A stretch of DNA of 64,000 nt from Escherichia phage phiC120. Of this stretch, positions 2,134 through 41,123 are shown piece after piece. The translations under genes were made by a program, and so were the position numbers. The DNA lies in sequence record KY703222; one strand, given 5' to 3'. The notes under the pieces are model-generated. The model saw only the letters and a list, made by a program, of their open reading frames with translations, searched no databases and had not been told where the DNA came from. Each line of letters opens with the position of its first letter. Position 1 is the first letter of the stretch.

Positions 2134-2550
2134 TTATGCAGCAACCATCTGCTTTTTAATAGCTTCAGGCAGTGATTCAATATATTCTGGAATTTTAGAA
2201 GCAACAATTTCGCCGGCTGCAATTAGCTGTTCGTCGGCATCAACACAGTAGAAATCTTCCAGACGCTCAGAACCATCTTTATCAAGAACGATTTTTCCAC
2301 CAGCTTCAATAGAATCTTTATAGTGCTTACGCATCAGATGAATCCACATATCAGATACATCGTTATCAATAAAACCATAAATCATAAAACGAGTTTCTTG
2401 TGGCAAAGATTGAAGCTTTTTAGCACTTGCGTCATCACAATGCAGGACCCATGCTTTACGAACACGATTATGGTTATGCGGGTTAGCGTCAGTACGGATA
2501 GAAGTAACTTTCAGATCAGCAGCAGTAAAACCTTTAGCAGTGGTAAACAT
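2134..2550 (-). CDS. rpbA: RNA polymerase-binding protein RpbA (positional assignment)
   Basis: 138-aa ORF immediately upstream of gene 45, the T4 rpbA position; sequence not independently recognised. Confidence 0.5.
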   Translation of the reverse strand: MFTTAKGFTAADLKVTSIRTDANPHNHNRVRKAWVLHCDDASAKKLQSLPQETRFMIYGFIDNDVSDMWIHLMRKHYKDSIEAGGKIVLDKDGSERLEDFYCVDADEQLIAAGEIVASKIPEYIESLPEAIKKQMVAA

Positions 2551-2562
2551 ATTATTTCTCTC

Positions 2563-2763
2563 TTATTCGTAGAAGTCGGTAACTGTCCATGCGGAATTGC
2601 GATTAGACATTATTTTATTATACTCATCTTTAAAAGCAGATTTGAGCATTTGTTCAGTAACAATATGTTCTTCACCTGAAAACGTATTGGTCAAAACATA
2701 TTTTTTAATTTCAGGGACAACGAGAAGATGTTGTCCGGTTGAATACTCCATGTTGTTCTCCAT
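2563..2763 (-). CDS. Hypothetical protein (T4 45.x position)
   Basis: 66-aa ORF in operon orientation between rpbA and gene 46. Confidence 0.4.
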   Translation of the reverse strand: MENNMEYSTGQHLLVVPEIKKYVLTNTFSGEEHIVTEQMLKSAFKDEYNKIMSNRNSAWTVTDFYE

Positions 2764-2805
2764 TTAATTTGATGTGGTCATTATAACCACATCATGTTAA
2801 AGCGT

Positions 2806-4494
2806 TTATGAAACAGTCATCACAGTAAATCGTCCAACTTTGCTCATTTGAAGATGTTGTCCATAACGTTGAGGGTCATGGTCTCGATGAGAGATAATGA
2901 ACACATTAGTATTTTGTAAACTTCCAAGAATGGTATCTATAGCCTTAACAGCTTCAGAATCAACTGCCCCATCAAAAACCTCATCAAGAATCAACGTGTT
3001 GATTTTAACACCAGAAACTTTTTCAGCAATATCTCGCCATGTAAACAACAATGCGATATCGATACGTGCCTTTTCACCTTGACTAAATGAAGCATAACTA
3101 AAATCTTCACGACCACGTGATTTTATAGATTCATTGAATTCTTCATCAATAGAAAACACGTAATCAGCTTCCATGATTTTAAGATAATGGTTAATCTGCT
3201 TGTTGAAGAGAGGCACATATTTTTTAATGATAGCACCTTTAATACCAGAATCTTTTAACATATCTGTGATAATACCACGATGGTATTTTTCAAGAACGAT
3301 ATCCGATTTTGTTTTAATGATTTTATCAAGTTCTTTTTGAAGCAAAGCTATCTCATCGGCATGGTCGATAAATTCCGCCGAGGCTTGTTCTATTGCAGCT
3401 TTAACTTTCTTAGCTTTATCAATAGTGGCAATCATTGCTTGTTTCTTGGTACGGATATCAGATGCAAGGTCCTGTTTAGTCTTAACATTAGCTCGATATT
3501 CGTCCACTAGGACACTCAGATTATCTCTGTGACAGGTAAGTTGTTCGAATGAGTGATTACATTCATGAAGCTTATCGGTAATCTTAGAGACAATAGGATC
3601 ACCCTGGTGCAACTGTGATGCACAAGTAGGACATGTACCGCCATCATGATACATCTTAATAACTTTGTTATATGAGTCAATTTTAGATTTAATCAATAAT
3701 GCTTCTTGTCCGATCTTGTTGAATGCCTCAGTAGGGTCTTCGTCAAGAACGATATTAAGTAGTCGCTCATTAGCTTCTTCGATTTCTGCTTTTAATGACC
3801 GAGCTTCTTTGGCTAGGTCGTCATACATATTCTGTAGACGTGCTACATTATCGCCAGATAATTTCTTTTGGCGTTCGATATTCTCGTTATAAATCTTAAT
3901 TTGTTGGATAATACCATCTTTCTTGGCATCGAGAACTTGACCCTGGGAATTAAGTTCTCGAACTTGAGACTTATTGATTTTATCCATTTCAGCGAGTGTT
4001 CCAACTTCTAATAAGTCTTCAACAAGCTTTCTGCGAGCAGGGGTGCTAAGAGCCATGAAAGGGGTATACCCTGCCGTCCCAAGCACAACGATCTGTTTAA
4101 AAGACGCGTATGACATTCCGATGCTACGTTCAAATTCTTCTTGGAAGTCACGACTGCTGGCAGATTCATCAAGACGAACACCGTCAACGGAGATTTCGAA
4201 AATATTGGGCTTTTGGCCTCGTTTAATGAAGTATTTTTTATCATCGAATTCCATCCAAAGCTCAACTAAGAGCTCTTTCTTGTTCGTGCTATTAATGATT
4301 TGTCCTTTCTTAACATCACGAAATGGTTTACCGAAAAGTCCGAAAGTAATGGCTTCTAACATCGTAGATTTACCACCACCATTTTTACCAGTGATTAATG
4401 TCTTTTGGACTTTATCTAATTGGATATCAATAGGATTCCCACCTACCGACATGATGTTTTGATAACGAACACGATTTAATTTAAATGATTTCAT
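2806..4494 (-). CDS. 46: Recombination endonuclease subunit gp46 (Rad50/SbcC-like ATPase)
   Basis: 562 aa; N-terminal Walker A GKNGGGKST, long coiled-coil middle, C-terminal signature/Walker B LILDEVFDGAVD. Confidence 0.92.
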   Translation of the reverse strand: MKSFKLNRVRYQNIMSVGGNPIDIQLDKVQKTLITGKNGGGKSTMLEAITFGLFGKPFRDVKKGQIINSTNKKELLVELWMEFDDKKYFIKRGQKPNIFEISVDGVRLDESASSRDFQEEFERSIGMSYASFKQIVVLGTAGYTPFMALSTPARRKLVEDLLEVGTLAEMDKINKSQVRELNSQGQVLDAKKDGIIQQIKIYNENIERQKKLSGDNVARLQNMYDDLAKEARSLKAEIEEANERLLNIVLDEDPTEAFNKIGQEALLIKSKIDSYNKVIKMYHDGGTCPTCASQLHQGDPIVSKITDKLHECNHSFEQLTCHRDNLSVLVDEYRANVKTKQDLASDIRTKKQAMIATIDKAKKVKAAIEQASAEFIDHADEIALLQKELDKIIKTKSDIVLEKYHRGIITDMLKDSGIKGAIIKKYVPLFNKQINHYLKIMEADYVFSIDEEFNESIKSRGREDFSYASFSQGEKARIDIALLFTWRDIAEKVSGVKINTLILDEVFDGAVDSEAVKAIDTILGSLQNTNVFIISHRDHDPQRYGQHLQMSKVGRFTVMTVS

Positions 4495-28972: not shown

Positions 28973-29281
28973 TCAATTAGAAAATAAATTTATCCAAGTT
29001 TTTTCTTTAATCAAAAATGGGTCGGAATTAAACGCCATTAAACTTTGAGTGATTAATCCCTTAAATGGCCCATCAATAAATTCCATTTTGAAATGCGGAA
29101 TACTAGTCATCAGTCGTGCATTAGGAGCAGTACAAAGAACCTGCTGCCCTGCGAACGGACCTTTAGTCAAACGATATCGTTTAGGTTTAAAATGGTAAAT
29201 CTCGTAATTTTCTACAAGAGCCCTTTTATTGCATACTGGGCTGTTATAACAATACTCAAAAACTTCAATAGTGGTCATCAT
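28973..29281 (-). CDS. Hypothetical protein (vs.7 position)
   Basis: 102-aa ORF. Confidence 0.45.
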   Translation of the reverse strand: MMTTIEVFEYCYNSPVCNKRALVENYEIYHFKPKRYRLTKGPFAGQQVLCTAPNARLMTSIPHFKMEFIDGPFKGLITQSLMAFNSDPFLIKEKTWINLFSN

Positions 29282-29817
29282 TGCATTCCAATCACAAAAA
29301 ATTGAGGACGAGCATTACCGCCGTTGCAATATTTGCTTTTGCAACAGTGTTGGACTGTTTTAATATGTACATTGTAAATCTTATCCATATCAGGAGCTTT
29401 AATAGGCTCGTCAATTATGTATAGAATACGAGAAAGCGTTAATCCACGGAATTTAGAACCTTCATTGCCAATAAAACTACGAACAGAATCAGTAAATAAA
29501 CGGAATCGAATATCGTCGCTAGAATAACGAGAAAATTCTTTTTTAATGTTGCCAGCAGAAATTTTAGAATAAGCTGAAGTATTAGAAAGAACAATAACTG
29601 TTCCGCCATCATACAGCCAATTAACAGCAAAATTAGTTACTGCGGTCGATTTACCTGATTGTCTGCCGCCGTCTAAACGAAGTGTACAGTACTGCTTGAG
29701 TACGTCTTCAAATGGTGGGGCATAACCGTTCTTACAAATTTCTTCTACTCTAGCATCAGAATGGTGTGTAAAAGCATTCATCAGGGATAGATAAGGTCCG
29801 GTTAAAAATGTTCTCAT
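29278..29817 (-). CDS. P-loop NTPase (vs.8 position)
   Basis: 179 aa; Walker A LDGGRQSGKSTAV. Confidence 0.5.
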   Translation of the reverse strand: MRTFLTGPYLSLMNAFTHHSDARVEEICKNGYAPPFEDVLKQYCTLRLDGGRQSGKSTAVTNFAVNWLYDGGTVIVLSNTSAYSKISAGNIKKEFSRYSSDDIRFRLFTDSVRSFIGNEGSKFRGLTLSRILYIIDEPIKAPDMDKIYNVHIKTVQHCCKSKYCNGGNARPQFFVIGMQ

Positions 29818-29991
29818 TTAGTTTCTCTTTTAGGTTGGGGCCATTCCATGGCACATGTTAGGTCCTTCGACTCGCTATGTAAACCCATTACCGCACTTGG
29901 GCTCGACCTTATTACAGGTTGGAAAAGGTACATCACTCAGAGGACTCGACGTTCATGAGGAGAGGTTGCGTTTCCCTTTATTAGGCAAGAA

Positions 29992-30321
29992 TTATACTCT
30001 AGGCTTTTGAGCTTGTTTGGTATTGGATTCCCATGCGGCTTTGGTAATTTTGTTAGCGGCATAACCAAAGGCATTAGATAGAACACCTTTAGAGTTGAAT
30101 ACATCCAATCCAATAAGTACACCAGCTGCGTTAAATTTAGGAGCAAAGTATGCATTAGTTTTAGAAAGAGCTTTTTTCAATTCAGGGTCTTGAACCAAGC
30201 CATCAAAAACGCCTTTACCATTTACTTTATATGTTACTTTGGGATTTTTACCTTCTTCGATAGCAGCTTTCTGTTCCGCAGATAATGTAACTTCAGTGAT
30301 AAATTCTTGATACGTTTTCAT
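29992..30321 (-). CDS. Internal protein with capsid targeting sequence (IP-like)
   Basis: N-terminus MKTYQEFITE equals the T4 internal-protein capsid targeting sequence; Ala/Lys-rich 109 aa. Confidence 0.7.
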   Translation of the reverse strand: MKTYQEFITEVTLSAEQKAAIEEGKNPKVTYKVNGKGVFDGLVQDPELKKALSKTNAYFAPKFNAAGVLIGLDVFNSKGVLSNAFGYAANKITKAAWESNTKQAQKPRV

Positions 30322-30350
30322 ATGTTTCCTTTAAATGTAAATAGGCCTTA

Positions 30351-30929
30351 TTAATTACCACGGGCCGCATTAGCGACGGCGTAAGCGTACTGAACATTAG
30401 CGTCTTTAAACGTACCTTTAGAGGTATCTATTTCTGCCTTAAAGCCACCTTTAGCCATAACATCGGCAAATTCTTTACGGAAAGTCATTGCATCAAGACC
30501 TTTCCATGATGATTTATGCTTGGCAAATTCAAGACCAGCGTAGTTGACAGCTTTAGCCAATTTATTATCAATGACCCATTTACCTGCTTTAGGCACAAAC
30601 TTCGGGCCTTTTTGTTTAGAGAACAGTTTTAAATTCCAGCGACGAAGGTCACTGTCGGCTTTAACAAAAGCTGCGTCTAAGTTACTAGCAACAACATCTT
30701 CAATATGAGCAAATTTAAGTCCGTCAACTTCAATATTTAGATCGTTACGCCAGCGTAGTCCTTCCCAAGCGAAGGCTTTAAAATCAGAAGCTTTTGTGGC
30801 TAGATATCGTTCAAGTGGAGCAGTTTTAGGGTCAAAACCATTTCCGCCACGATAATTCCACTCGTCCTTATTAATGCCTTGAGCTTTTCCTGCAAAGGCC
30901 TCGGCGATAAATTCTTTATATGTTTTCAT
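30351..30929 (-). CDS. Internal protein with capsid targeting sequence (IP-like)
   Basis: N-terminus MKTYKEFIAE; 192 aa. Confidence 0.7.
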   Translation of the reverse strand: MKTYKEFIAEAFAGKAQGINKDEWNYRGGNGFDPKTAPLERYLATKASDFKAFAWEGLRWRNDLNIEVDGLKFAHIEDVVASNLDAAFVKADSDLRRWNLKLFSKQKGPKFVPKAGKWVIDNKLAKAVNYAGLEFAKHKSSWKGLDAMTFRKEFADVMAKGGFKAEIDTSKGTFKDANVQYAYAVANAARGN

Positions 30930-30959
30930 TTTTGTTTCCTTGTTTGTTTTGATAGAGTA

Positions 30960-30989
30960 ATTATACCATATTAATACTTAAGCGTAAAC
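30960..30989 (-). promoter_or_regulatory. Early-type promoter GTTTAC-N18-TATAAT
   Basis: Upstream of the IP-like gene 30351..30929. Confidence 0.5.
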
Positions 30990-30992
30990 AAT

Positions 30993-31253
30993 TTAAGCTT
31001 TACCGCCAGAAATAATTCCGAAGTTGTTAAAATCGTATCCAATATCATCAGCATCTACTTTAGGACTTGCTACAACATAAGCAATTTCACTACGTTTTGC
31101 ATAGGTGTTGATTTCTTTACCATCGCCACCTAAGAAAGAATACCCATTACGTTTTAATGAGCCAAAGTCTTCCGCATCACCAATGAAAGCTTTAACTTTA
31201 AATTTGGGGTCTTTGGCATCCGCTTCAGTGATAAATTCTTGATACATTTTCAT
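30993..31253 (-). CDS. Internal protein with capsid targeting sequence (IP-like)
   Basis: N-terminus MKMYQEFITE; 86 aa. Confidence 0.65.
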   Translation of the reverse strand: MKMYQEFITEADAKDPKFKVKAFIGDAEDFGSLKRNGYSFLGGDGKEINTYAKRSEIAYVVASPKVDADDIGYDFNNFGIISGGKA

Positions 31254-31259
31254 TTTTCC

Positions 31260-31673
31260 TTAGTAAATTGATTTACCATAGTATTTGTACCAAGTGGGAC
31301 GTTGAGCAATTTTTTCATCTAAGCGTGCTTGACTTATCGCAATGGACGCTTCGGACGGGACATAATTATTACGAAATTCTACAGGAATGTCGGAAATATC
31401 CTGGACTGTCGTGTCCTTGATTTTGAAACCACGTTTCAAACATTCAGCTATTAGCTCGATTTGACGTAAACGTAAAAATTCGAGTTTGTCGTAAAAGAAT
31501 GTTACGTGGCCCGTGCCTAAAATAAATGTTGGAGAGATTTTAAAATCTTTTACACGTTTACCATTTTGAACATGTTTACGGACTGCACCGAATACACGAG
31601 GTAATTCACGATACTCAGCCATAAGATGTTGGTCGGTCAGTTCAGAAACAAGTGTTAAATTGATACGAGTCAT
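31260..31673 (-). CDS. denV: Endonuclease V (pyrimidine-dimer DNA glycosylase) DenV
   Basis: [34 protein letters not shown]...[10 protein letters not shown] matches T4 endo V; start at internal Met of ORF 31260..31685. Confidence 0.92.
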
Positions 31674-31700
31674 AATTTCCTCCAAGTAGTTGATAGATGT

Positions 31701-31730
31701 ATAGTATCAAAACCCTTGGAGGAAGTAAAC
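31701..31730 (-). promoter_or_regulatory. Early-type promoter for denV with anti-SD arm in the spacer
   Basis: GTTTAC -35 at 31725..31730; 10-bp perfect inverted repeat 31677..31686 / 31715..31724 pairs the spacer with the denV SD GGAGG. Confidence 0.6.
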
Positions 31731-31731
31731 A

Positions 31732-32013
31732 CTATTTTTCTGAAGCGCCTGAAATATATTTTTCAAGACGTTGTTTCATTAACGAGCCGTTCTTAGCGAT
31801 TTCTTCCGGTTTATCGCACATACGCAGCAGTGCTTCAAGCTTAACGATATCACTGGTGCGCTCAAATTTGCGAGTATCTATCTTACTGGCAAGTTCAGAA
31901 ATACGTGCTAATAGACTTTCAGCTTCAACTAAAGCTGCACCTAGCTTAGTTGCAAATGTGTCAGTAGCTTCGTTAAGAATAGATTCTGATAAAAATTCAC
32001 TATATGTTTTCAT
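31732..32013 (-). CDS. Internal protein with capsid targeting sequence (ipII/ipIII position)
   Basis: Start at internal Met gives [10 protein letters not shown]; sits between denV and e as T4 ipII/ipIII do. Confidence 0.65.
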
Positions 32014-32498
32014 ATATACGCTTTCCAAGTTCCTGTTTTAAATGTTGAGATTACGCGTTTCGCGCGATTAGGTGTCTGACGATACCATTTAGATTGGGCT
32101 AGATTTACTGCCGCTTCATCCCAACGTTTCTGTTGAAGCATACGAAGAGAATTAGTAAAACCAGCAACGCCTGCTACACCCATTTGAAAGACCATATTGA
32201 CCAATGCACATCGACGAACCGCATCTAAAGAATCATATACCGGTTTAAGTTTAGCATTACCCAAGATTCCGCGAACGGCTTTATCGACGTCTTCATTAAA
32301 TAGCTTTTCAGCCTCATCAAGGGTAATTGTACCGTTGCATTTACGACCGATCATTCTGTCAAGTTCAGCTTTAGCTACGGCTAAAGACGGGTTCTTTGTT
32401 ACTAAATGGCCTATGCCAATCGTCCAAAAGCCTTCGGTGTCTTTGTATAAAGTCAGTCTAAGACCTTCGTCATTACGAAGCATTTCAAATATATTCAT
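32010..32498 (-). CDS. e: Lysozyme (endolysin)
   Basis: 162 aa [32 protein letters not shown]...[18 protein letters not shown], near-identical to T4 lysozyme including the catalytic Glu/Asp/Thr context. Confidence 0.97.
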
Positions 32499-32500
32499 AA

Positions 32501-32524
32501 TACCTCCTACGTTTATAGGAGGTA
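32501..32524 (-). promoter_or_regulatory. RBS-sequestering hairpin upstream of lysozyme gene e
   Basis: Perfect 9-bp inverted repeat TACCTCCTA / TAGGAGGTA; the SD AGGAGG is in the 3' arm 4 nt from the ATG; loop contains a late-promoter-like TATAAACG. Confidence 0.7.
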
Positions 32525-32532
32525 TTTATTAC

Positions 32533-32991
32533 TTATAGGATGGTAGTGAGCACCTTATATAATGATTTGCCCATTACATATTCCCATTGAGAAGGTTTAA
32601 TTAAAGCGAATGCATCAAATTCAGGAATCTGTCGTCCGTCTGGGAATGTATGATAGGAATTACAAACACTGTTTCTGAATTGCTCGTGCTCTACAGGGAT
32701 GGTATATTGGAATAGATGAATATTCTTATTGTCTGAGTAATGATGTTCGCCTAGGTCTTTCAGGAAGGCAGGGTCATATTGTGTAAACCCAGTTTCTTCT
32801 TCGCATTCACGAATAGCGGCTTCAATAGGAGATTCACCTGGCTCGACACGGCCTTTAGGAATATCCCACCGATGAGCTAATGCACCTTTAGGACGAGAAC
32901 CAGTTACACGGCCCATGAATAACTCTTTATCTTTTGTCATGAAGATAATACCGGCTGATAGTTCTTTCACTTTATTTTTCTTACTCATCAT
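32533..32991 (-). CDS. nudE: Nudix hydrolase NudE (e.1)
   Basis: Nudix box GRVEPGESPIEAAIRECEEETG. Confidence 0.88.
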   Translation of the reverse strand: MMSKKNKVKELSAGIIFMTKDKELFMGRVTGSRPKGALAHRWDIPKGRVEPGESPIEAAIRECEEETGFTQYDPAFLKDLGEHHYSDNKNIHLFQYTIPVEHEQFRNSVCNSYHTFPDGRQIPEFDAFALIKPSQWEYVMGKSLYKVLTTIL

Positions 32992-33232
32992 CTCGGTCCC
33001 ATGATTTGGCCATTAATTCGGACATAAATTCTTCAATGCGCGTTTCTTTAGATGGACTTTCACTATTAGAAACCGCAAGTTTGTAATCTGCAATAGGACA
33101 GAACATATCAAGGTCCATATTAAGATCGTCTTTGATTTTTTCTTCTGACACATCTTTATCATATGTGTACAGATAACTATCACATGATTCTGATTTAATG
33201 TAAATTGCTATACTCATCTCAAATTCCTGCAT
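32981..33232 (-). CDS. Hypothetical acidic protein
   Basis: 83-aa ORF. Confidence 0.45.
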   Translation of the reverse strand: MQEFEMSIAIYIKSESCDSYLYTYDKDVSEEKIKDDLNMDLDMFCPIADYKLAVSNSESPSKETRIEEFMSELMAKSWDRDDE

Positions 33233-33705
33233 TCGGTAATAAAACGTTCAACTTCATTATTCTTGGCCTTTATCTTGTCTTTACGTTCCTGTAAACTACT
33301 TTTAACAAGATTAATAATGATGCCTATAGTACCTCCACCAATAATACCACCAATAATACTTACGATAGTAGATGCTAATAATATAGCGATAATATCTGGT
33401 ATGGCAAAGGCACTTACTTTAGTACTAAAAAACCATACCGACGGTACAAATATAATCCATCCTGTTATCCATTGGCACTTATTGAAAAACTTTTCAAGCT
33501 CAGCTTGAGTTGTTCGTATTACTTCATCGATAGGTTGATATCCATTAATGTATCTGTTCACGATAATACCTGCTGGCTGGTCGATTTTAAATTCTTGACA
33601 AATACGTTTCACTAAGTAGGATGGACATCCTGTCCAATCTACTGAATAGTACGAAATACCTTCATTACCGTCGTCTATATTAGACCAATATGTTTTGTTA
33701 ATCAT
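33214..33705 (-). CDS. Membrane protein
   Basis: 163 aa; hydrophobic segments WITGWIIFVPSVWFF and IIAILLASTIVSIIGGIIGGGTIGIIINLV. Confidence 0.5.
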   Translation of the reverse strand: MINKTYWSNIDDGNEGISYYSVDWTGCPSYLVKRICQEFKIDQPAGIIVNRYINGYQPIDEVIRTTQAELEKFFNKCQWITGWIIFVPSVWFFSTKVSAFAIPDIIAILLASTIVSIIGGIIGGGTIGIIINLVKSSLQERKDKIKAKNNEVERFITECRNLR

Positions 33706-34391
33706 TACCAGCCTTCCATAGGGAATTCCAGATAAACTTGAGCATTGACACGAATTTCATTAGTAATCTTTTTAACTCGGTCTGTATTACGAGATACACG
33801 TCCGAACCAACGCCATCCATTACTAATTGCACGAGAACCAGTGTGCCATGTTTGCCAATCAAACTGAAGAAGAGTACGGTCCGGAGCTTCCCATTTCTCT
33901 AGTTCACCTTTTTCAATTTTTTCGAGGACTTCTTTGTGCCACTGGCGATAGATAAGTTCGCCATCAGGAATCTGACTGAACTCTGCAGTTCCTGTTGCAA
34001 AATGAGTAGGACACACATCAGCGTTAACAAGACCAAGAATATGTTCAGAATGGTAACGAGGGTTATCATAGTCAGGTTGTCCTGCAGTAATAAAGTGTTG
34101 GCCGACTGGAATATCAGGGCGAGGAACATCATCATGGTGATATCCAGGAATAGCAGGATACCAACCAGGCATCAGCATGTGGACTCGTGAATCAAATACT
34201 ACATCCGAGCCTTTCCAATCGTCAGGGAGATTTTGGATAAAGCTACGAGTAATTGGACCACCGTTATCCCAAGCAAAACTCAAATCACAGTTAAAGAACA
34301 TTGGTTCATTTTTGATTTGGTCATTTTGTACGTTATGAGCAAAACCACCTACTGCACGAGCTTGACTATTAAACACTTTAGAACTATTCAT
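33705..34391 (-). CDS. Hypothetical protein (His/Asp-rich)
   Basis: 228-aa ORF; GYHHDDV and HSEH clusters of unclear significance. Confidence 0.5.
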   Translation of the reverse strand: MNSSKVFNSQARAVGGFAHNVQNDQIKNEPMFFNCDLSFAWDNGGPITRSFIQNLPDDWKGSDVVFDSRVHMLMPGWYPAIPGYHHDDVPRPDIPVGQHFITAGQPDYDNPRYHSEHILGLVNADVCPTHFATGTAEFSQIPDGELIYRQWHKEVLEKIEKGELEKWEAPDRTLLQFDWQTWHTGSRAISNGWRWFGRVSRNTDRVKKITNEIRVNAQVYLEFPMEGW

Positions 34392-34392
34392 A

Positions 34393-34698
34393 TTATTTTC
34401 CTCGGCATTCTTTAATGAAATTTTCTAGATTGGTAGATTCAATAGCTTTTTTACGAGCTTCTGCATGTTCTTCTTCAGACAATTTACATTTATAATTAAC
34501 CCAGACGTTATGGTCAAAACTAGTCGTGGCATATAATAACAAAGCCCCGACGAATAATAAAAATGGTGATAAGAATACAAAACCAGGAACACCATCCATA
34601 TCGTAAGCCTTTTGTAATACTGCAACAGAAAGAGCTGCGTAAAAAGGTGATGCAAATATTGTAAAAAGACCAATTCGGTTGGTTTCGCCTAATTTCAT
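34393..34698 (-). CDS. Membrane protein
   Basis: 101 aa with two hydrophobic helices. Confidence 0.5.
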   Translation of the reverse strand: MKLGETNRIGLFTIFASPFYAALSVAVLQKAYDMDGVPGFVFLSPFLLFVGALLLYATTSFDHNVWVNYKCKLSEEEHAEARKKAIESTNLENFIKECRGK

Positions 34699-39969: not shown

Positions 39970-40533
39970 TTATTTACCTAGTTTAGTTATTATAGCTTCG
40001 GCAGCAGCTTTTAGCTTAGATGCAGTGTTAATACGATTTTTAATTTCAGTATACGCATCGCCAAGAACATCAAGGCTATCAGAATAAACACTTACACTAT
40101 TGCGTTCGCTATTTGAAATAGAACCTTTAGTTTTACGATCAAAATCAGTGTACACGTCTTGAAGATCACGGGCTGCCTTCTTTGCATCATCCAATGCATC
40201 AAGAGCTTTATTCAAAGCATTGACATATTTTTTAGTGTCAAACATATTCTTAGAAATTTTAACAGGTGCACGTTCAGGAGTAGATAAGGCGGATTTAGGA
40301 ACCTGCGTGCCAGATGCCAGTTTCTTAGAAATTTTGAAAAATGCTTTATTTAAACTATTTTCTTGACTCATCGTAAAAGAACTAGTATCGATGTTATACA
40401 TTTCAATAGCTTTAGCTTTCCACTTAAGAAAATCGCCACGGTCTTTTGGATCCAAGTTGAAGAATACTTTAGTAAGATCTGCTTCAGATGGTAATTTTGC
40501 TGCTTCGGTTAAAAATTCGGCGTAGGTTTTCAT
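39970..40533 (-). CDS. Internal protein with capsid targeting sequence (IP-like)
   Basis: N-terminus MKTYAEFLTE; 187 aa. Confidence 0.65.
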   Translation of the reverse strand: MKTYAEFLTEAAKLPSEADLTKVFFNLDPKDRGDFLKWKAKAIEMYNIDTSSFTMSQENSLNKAFFKISKKLASGTQVPKSALSTPERAPVKISKNMFDTKKYVNALNKALDALDDAKKAARDLQDVYTDFDRKTKGSISNSERNSVSVYSDSLDVLGDAYTEIKNRINTASKLKAAAEAIITKLGK

Positions 40534-40658: not shown

Positions 40659-41123
40659 TTATTTGATTTGTTTAGCAGACCAAATGCGGTCTTTAATAAG
40701 TTTTTGGATATCTTCAACATACTCAAGGCTATGAGCGTGAGGATTATCTTTGAAGCTATGTGCTCGTGCCAGTTTCTGGCCTTCAGTTTTGATTACCAAA
40801 AGTTCTTTAAGAATTGCTTCATACTTAGAAATAATTCCTTTGGCGATATTTTTTTCTTGAGCTGCTTTAGGGCCCGCTTTTGGTGCTGGTGCTTTACCTG
40901 TAGCTTTCTGGAACAATTCACCTGATGCAGCTAGGCTTTTAAAAACTCGGCTAACAGTATTAGCATTAGTAAAACCTTCGGCTTTAAAATCTCTAATAAA
41001 ACGGAAACGTTCTTCATCAGAGGCGTCTTTGTAAGAATATTTACCTGCTTGAATTGCTGCAATCGCAGCGGCTTTTACATCTGAACTAGATTGTTCAGTC
41101 AAAAATTCTGCATATGATTTCAT
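40659..41123 (-). CDS. Internal protein with capsid targeting sequence (IP-like)
   Basis: N-terminus MKSYAEFLTE; 154 aa. Confidence 0.65.
   Translation of the reverse strand: MKSYAEFLTEQSSSDVKAAAIAAIQAGKYSYKDASDEERFRFIRDFKAEGFTNANTVSRVFKSLAASGELFQKATGKAPAPKAGPKAAQEKNIAKGIISKYEAILKELLVIKTEGQKLARAHSFKDNPHAHSLEYVEDIQKLIKDRIWSAKQIK

Follow-up and report, generated by a model that had tools for sequence, protein, structure and literature searches.

The window analysed here, a stretch of 64,000 nucleotides from Escherichia phage phiC120 (KY703222), contains four genes whose products begin with the capsid targeting sequence (CTS) of the T4 internal proteins (IPs). The array is the e-denV-vs.8 Ip locus of an RB69-like T4-type phage (Mosigvirus), a genuine feature that belongs to a known system and has a known layout. 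The best explanation, to which we assign a probability of roughly 0.85, is an Ip locus with four CTS genes whose bodies have been recombined and whose products would be packaged and injected as they are in T4. The gene structure, the CTS determinants, the orthology, the census of related loci and the recombination joints described below were obtained directly.

All genes of the locus lie on the minus strand, and in the direction of transcription their order is e > IP93 > denV > IP86 > ipIII > IP109 > vs.8. The lysozyme gene e (32010-32498; Pfam Phage_lysozyme, PF00959) forms the upstream boundary and vs.8 (29278-29936; phrog_1488) the downstream boundary, and denV (31260-31673; endonuclease V; Pfam Pyr_excise, PF03013, E 3.6e-14) is a fixed gene within the array. 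Three CTS genes lie between denV and vs.8: the IP86 gene (30993-31253; 86 aa, N-terminus MKMYQEFITE), a member of the RB69 ORF125c family; an ipIII orthologue encoding IP192 (30351-30929; 192 aa, N-terminus MKTYKEFIAE); and the IP109 gene (29992-30321; 109 aa, N-terminus MKTYQEFITE), a member of the RB69 ORF123c family. The original prediction had placed these three genes upstream of denV, which is correct in plus-strand coordinates only; because every gene is on the minus strand, they are transcriptionally downstream of denV. It had also claimed a fourth CTS gene in the slot that ipII and ipIII occupy in T4, and the IP93 gene (31732-32013; 93 aa, Ip5 family), with a CTS at its start, indeed lies between e and denV. 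Likewise, the T4 gene order, e > ipIII > ipII > denV > vs.8, agrees with the claim that ipII and ipIII lie between denV and e in that phage.

The assignment of a CTS to the three adjacent genes is confirmed by the ORFs and by the statistics of the motif. In the six-frame translation of the window, the pattern MK.Y.EF[IL].E is matched six times, against 6.6e-5 matches expected from the residue frequencies. All six matches are ORF starts, four at the e-denV-vs.8 locus and two at 39970-40533 and 40659-41123. Experiments on the CTS of T4 IPIII have established that residues 4 and 7 are required for targeting and residues 8 and 10 for cleavage (PMC9026906). The targeting determinants Tyr4 and Phe7 are present in all four leaders of the locus, as is the gp21 processing motif (Ile/Leu8 and Glu10), with residues 8-10 reading ITE, IAE, ITE and LSE. 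All four genes are inside the e-denV-vs.8 interval. T-even-type phages have two known variable Ip loci, of which this interval is one.

The flanks of the locus are 96-97% identical in nucleotide sequence to those of RB69 and Shigella phage phi25-307, both of which are Mosigvirus, and 77-79% identical to those of T4; denV itself is 79% identical to T4 denV. In RB69 (NC_004928) the order is e > ORF127c > denV > ORF125c > ORF124c > ORF123c > vs.8. The two phages thus agree in gene order and in their three non-IPIII families at this locus, but the middle slot is occupied by a 90-aa ORF124c body in RB69 and by ipIII in the window. In phi25-307, five CTS genes follow denV, encoding IP86, an ORF124c-type protein, IPIII, IPII and IP109; three CTS genes follow denV in Bas46, and WG01 has a different combination. 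We took a census of 31 T4-like loci by scanning denV neighbourhoods from IMG/VR for CTS ORFs. IP genes were found in the e-denV-vs.8 interval in 29 of the 31 sampled loci, with 0-2 between e and denV and 0-3 between denV and vs.8, and at least one was present on the vs.8 side of denV in 22 of the 31. The T4 pattern (2, 0) was seen twice and is therefore a minority. IPIII is encoded before denV in some phages and after it in others. Fifteen body families are found at or adjoining the locus, and members of the Ip5 and Ip7 families, which are at the ipI locus in T2, are beside denV in other phages. A position beyond denV, which had been contrasted with the T4 layout, is not unusual and is shared with RB69 and with most of the sampled loci. 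The RB69-type layout has been public since the RB69 genome was deposited, and the finding is real but ordinary.

The middle gene of the three, judged by its sequence, is an ordinary ipIII. Across all 192 aa, its product shares 91% identity with T4 IPIII, and it matches phrog_5341 ("internal virion protein", E 4e-117), which does not agree with the description of this gene as a divergent paralogue. Alignment to known internal proteins had been named in advance as a check that could count against that description, and for one of the three genes, ipIII, it returned an ordinary known IP. The nucleotide identity of the gene to T4 ipIII is 89.6%, compared with 77-79% for the flanking backbone. The ipIII segment is therefore nearer to T4 than the backbone is, which fits exchange between lineages. 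The window and T4 proteins have the full-length sequence and the CTS type in common, but T4 ipIII lies between e and denV whereas the window gene lies between denV and vs.8 and, unlike its T4 counterpart, is placed behind an ORF124c-type leader. The predicted mature protein, after cleavage at MKTYKEFIAE|A, has 182 aa, is lysine-rich and basic, and has a pI of 9.6. The target of T4 Ip3 (IPIII) in E. coli ECOR17 is a type IV restriction system of two genes, GmrS1/GmrSD2, which the protein blocks (PMC12373910); infection of ECOR17 requires IPIII, and a plasmid-borne copy that lacks the leader is active (PMC9391042). Given that the window IPIII is orthologous to T4 IPIII, an ECOR17-type system would by analogy be its most likely target, and the protein would block that system.

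The original prediction had regarded the three genes as divergent paralogues. If they had arisen by local tandem duplication followed by rapid divergence, the N-terminal 10 residues that they have in common and the match of the IP109 and IP86 CTS codons at 29 of 30 nt would be accounted for. We compared the CTS proteins of the window with one another and with T4 IPI, IPII and IPIII by all-against-all BLASTP, and, except for the pair formed by the window and T4 IPIII, the alignments cover only the first 10-16 residues. When the leaders were removed, BLASTP revealed no similarity among the bodies of the CTS proteins of the denV locus in the window, nor between these bodies and T4 IPI or IPII. 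Homology of IP86, IP93 or IP109 to the body of T4 IPI or IPII was likewise not found in these comparisons, where the CTS alone aligns. Since the bodies are unrelated beyond the leader, the three genes are not paralogues in the usual sense. In addition, each body family occurs alone, in other combinations and at another locus in other phages, and the joints described below fall at the CTS boundary. For these reasons, we consider an origin by tandem duplication very improbable, and we favour recombination of unrelated bodies behind a common leader.

This recombination can be followed in a comparison with phi25-307, which resolves the region into three colinear blocks: window positions 29201-30321 correspond to positions 1-1120 of the phi25-307 locus, 30291-30953 to 1506-2177, and 30901-32700 to 2469-4268. 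The overlaps between the blocks coincide exactly with the 30 nt that encode the IP109 CTS and with the ipIII CTS together with its ribosome-binding leader. At the first joint (30291-30321, minus strand), which lies in the CTS-coding repeat of IP109, an ipII-type leader and CTS meets the IP109 body. At the second (30901-30953, minus strand), which spans the ipIII CTS repeat and the ribosome-binding region, an ORF124c-type leader meets the ipIII body; this joint is also seen as a block overlap in the comparison with RB69. The leader upstream of IP109 does not differ from the ipII leaders of phi25-307 or T4, and the IP109 body is identical to those of RB69 and phi25-307. Likewise, the leader of the window ipIII is identical to the ORF124c-type leader of the phi25-307 IP104. 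With IP109 behind an ipII leader and ipIII behind an ORF124c-type leader, the window array equals a phi25-307-type array minus the ipII and ORF124c-type bodies. In agreement with this, phi25-307 holds IP86, IPIII, IP109 and IP93 at 93-97% nucleotide identity to the window but additionally carries an ORF124c-type gene and ipII, both of whose bodies are absent from the window. Both joints lie inside 30-nt CTS-coding repeats, and their exact mapping is a modest addition made by the present analysis.

Homologous recombination between the 30-nt CTS-coding repeats would join unrelated bodies to the common leader. That such a leader lets T-even phages exchange internal-protein bodies was reportedly described by Repoila et al. 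in 1994. The view that bodies are swapped by way of the leader is echoed in later work (PMC3012670 and PMC9026906), and the clean CTS-to-CTS joints found here are a concrete example of the reshuffling of an Ip array. In phi25-307, an imperfect direct repeat of about 55 nt brackets the IP109 gene (phi25-307 locus about 1120-1185 and 615-680): one copy precedes the IP109 start (MKTY...), and the other precedes the start of the vs.8 core (MRTF...). This direct repeat may be the scar of a cassette insertion.

The three remaining proteins belong to families of 89 to 495 records each, many of them in therapeutic-type E. coli and Shigella phages. Searches of Pfam, NCBIfam and PDB sequences returned no relatives for IP86, IP93, IP109 or IPIII. 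IP93 is, from its sequence, a relative of Ip5: it is 49% identical to T2 Ip5 over 90% of its length (tblastn E 3e-14 to 2e-17) and matches phrog_3499 ("internal head protein"). The predicted mature form, cleaved before Ser, has 83 aa and a pI of 6.3. T2 Ip5 is encoded at the ipI locus beside 57B and has a longer IPI-type propeptide, whereas the IP93 gene adjoins e and its product has a short IPIII-type CTS. The 86- and 109-aa products represent two further families without known relatives beyond T4-like phages. The IP86 family comprises 216 phage records, some of them annotated as "internal head protein", and IP86 matches phrog_2667 and phrog_35655. Cleavage at MKMYQEFITE|A would yield a mature protein of 76 aa that is acidic, with a pI of 5.2. 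An AF2 model of IP86 from a 5-sequence alignment had a pLDDT of 45 and was unusable.

The IP109 family comprises 89 records, and among the 40 IP109 matches listed nearly all are labelled "hypothetical protein" or are unannotated. Its recognition as a family of CTS proteins, the ORF123c family, is a modest addition of the present analysis. A homologue in Dhakavirus WG01, located directly after denV, is 37-39% identical to IP109 and keeps the leader, indicating that IP109 is a real gene. The predicted mature IP109 (99 aa, cleavage at MKTYQEFITE|V) is lysine-rich and basic, with a pI of 9.7. We also considered whether residues 11-71 of IP109 (30109-30291) form an MBG_2 domain (PF18676), and no match to the Pfam model was found even at E <= 10. 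In one comparison, these residues showed about 34% pairwise identity to a single MBG_2 repeat of giant bacterial surface proteins (E 3e-6), and the phmmer matches of IP109 to giant repeat proteins are summed multi-repeat scores. We did not adopt the MBG-repeat reading because the Pfam model is unmatched and the low E-values sum many weak repeat matches. The C-terminal half of IP109 has a weak similarity to proteins built from short repeated segments.

Two of the corresponding leaders are altered in RB69. The ORF127c leader reads MKTYMNFYQN (RB69 locus 3423-3704) and the ORF123c leader reads MKTYQEFIAA, without Glu10 (RB69 locus 1950-2279), and from these sequences the two products may be unprocessed or unpackaged in RB69 itself. 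Truncated variants of IP86 are found in other phages. These damaged leaders and truncated variants are what one would cite if at least one gene of the window array were a decaying remnant whose product is no longer packaged. In contrast to the RB69 leaders, all four leaders of the window are intact and the ORFs are full length with ribosome-binding sites, and IP109 has been conserved across genera at 37-39% identity with its CTS retained. Thus, decay of any of the four window genes appears scarcely probable, and we regard the array as a set of intact CTS genes.

By analogy with T4, the CTS would bind the scaffolding core during prohead assembly and the prohead protease gp21 would cut after Glu10. 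The mature proteins would then remain in the head with the DNA and would be injected at infection, acting before any phage gene expression. It is on this analogy that we infer the packaging, cleavage, injection and targets of the four products; the papers searched contained neither virion proteomics nor cleavage data on them. Queries with gp19, gp20, gp67, gp68 and gp21 found no match within the 64-kb window, and phi25-307, a relative with 96-97% identity, has annotated genes for the gp21 protease and the gp22 scaffold. Phage P1 provides an analogy in its Dar proteins, which are likewise described as anti-restriction proteins that are packaged in the head and injected (PMC12810830). The Dar proteins are unrelated to the IPs of the window and lack the CTS/gp21 system.

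The functional argument rests on the protein class, since sequence and structure searches give no handle; fold and domain searches returned nothing pointing to a target. Each of the three T4 proteins Ip1, Ip2 and Ip3 inhibits its own GmrSD type IV enzyme, with no cross-protection (Silas 2025; PMC12373910), and the authors of that study propose that every protein encoded at the two Ip loci does likewise, with GmrSD variants as targets. For the Ip class, published work already leads one to expect an anti-defence role (PMC3012670, PMC12373910). The suggestion that the genes encode candidate injected anti-defence proteins therefore agrees with this expectation and with their intact CTSs, but the idea was already published and is not new. 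By analogy with the class, IP86, IP93 and IP109 would most likely be specific inhibitors of first-line host defences, probably of type IV restriction enzymes. IP86 resembles T4 IPI* and IPII in its packaging signal, its size (the mature protein has the 76 aa of IPI*) and its expected delivery, but it is acidic and has no similarity in its body to either protein. Counted against the class reading is that neither mature IP86 (pI 5.2) nor mature IP93 (pI 6.3) is basic, unlike T4 IPI, IPII and IPIII.

Internal proteins could instead be mainly structural or packaging accessories that neutralise DNA charge and speed head assembly, with no specific host target. T4 IPIII mutants assemble heads more slowly, their burst reaches about 40% of the normal size, and at low salt IPs bind DNA (PMC9026906); the lysine-rich, basic character of mature IP109 and IPIII (pI 9.6-9.7) would suit such a role. 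IP86 and IP93, however, are acidic or neutral, and the gain and loss of genes between close relatives fits accessory host-range functions and not a structural need. Moreover, all three T4 IPs have specific enzyme targets (PMC12373910). Thus, we think it unlikely that the role is mainly structural, and we retain the anti-defence reading.

Within the anti-defence reading, the type of target can be debated. IP86, IP93 and IP109 might be injected inhibitors of defences other than GmrSD, such as McrBC-type or other enzymes that recognise arabinosyl-hmC, or systems other than restriction. The backbone of the window is RB69-like, and the DNA of RB69-like phages carries arabinosylated, not glucosylated, hmC. 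Since the DNA sugar differs, the targets of the T4 IPs may not transfer. The CTS protein Bas37_0260, which is not related to IPI-III, inhibits McrBC (bioRxiv 10.1101/2025.11.20.689424). In tests against 15 GmrSD groups, ip4-10, Ip5 included, did not inhibit reproducibly (PMC12373910, Suppl. Fig. 9), a result that also counts against the class reading. Against targets outside GmrSD, the authors of PMC12373910 favour GmrSD variants for all proteins of the two Ip loci. Targets outside GmrSD are therefore possible in our estimation, though not the expectation. Somewhat more tentatively, IP86, IP109 and/or IP93 may inhibit non-GmrSD defences such as enzymes that recognise arabinosyl-hmC, in which case IP109 would define an inhibitor fold that is new, small and rich in beta structure. 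Host immunity encounters the injected internal proteins before any other phage product. The proteins of 86, 93 and 109 residues are uncharacterised members of this class, and knowing their targets would enlarge the list of inhibitors paired with restriction enzymes and would aid the prediction of host range. The current understanding of the Ip system is unchanged by the present results.

The arrangement of the genes indicates co-transcription of the locus: the IP93 start overlaps the stop codon of e (ATGA), the IP86 start is 6 nt past the denV stop, and no terminator-like site was found on the minus strand between e and vs.8. A sigma-70-type promoter-like site precedes ipIII (30960-30988, minus strand), with TTTACG, a 17-nt spacer and a TG-extended TATAAT. 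It is the best such site of the region (10 of 12 positions plus the TG extension), as judged by consensus match only. No exact T4 late promoter (TATAAATA) was found directly upstream of the three genes, so that late expression would need read-through starting near e. A conserved hairpin at 32499-32526 covers the ribosome-binding site of e (CCTCCTA...TAGGAGG). T4 e has a similar hairpin with an adjoining late-promoter-like AATAAATA. At the other end of the locus, vs.8 is split in the window into a 40-aa ORF (29814-29936), which matches the N-terminus of T4 Vs.8, and a 179-aa ORF (29278-29817) that follows it with an ATGA overlap; T4 vs.8 is a single ORF of 219 aa.

The region 29800-32100 is 100% identical to Escherichia phage Av-05 (NC_025830), in which the genes of the array are annotated as internal virion or internal head proteins, except for the 109-aa gene, which is "hypothetical". 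Av-05 is filed under Vequintavirinae/Avunavirus with a genome of only 120,938 bp, yet the region 29800-34698 is 96-97% identical to the Mosigvirus phages RB69 and phi25-307. The window diverges from Av-05 just after 34698, the point at which Av-05 carries a further CTS gene (87 aa, MKTFNEFISE). The two CTS genes of the window outside the denV locus, both on the minus strand, encode proteins of 187 aa (39970-40533, MKTYAEFLTE) and 154 aa (40659-41123, MKSYAEFLTE). Both proteins belong to phrog_2280 and, unlike the products of the denV-side genes, look like true paralogues. Just upstream of the 154-aa gene are a hairpin with a T-run and an AT-rich promoter-like stretch. The position of the two genes in the window suggests that they are at an ipI-type locus; at the locus of this type in Bas37, a CTS protein inhibits McrBC.
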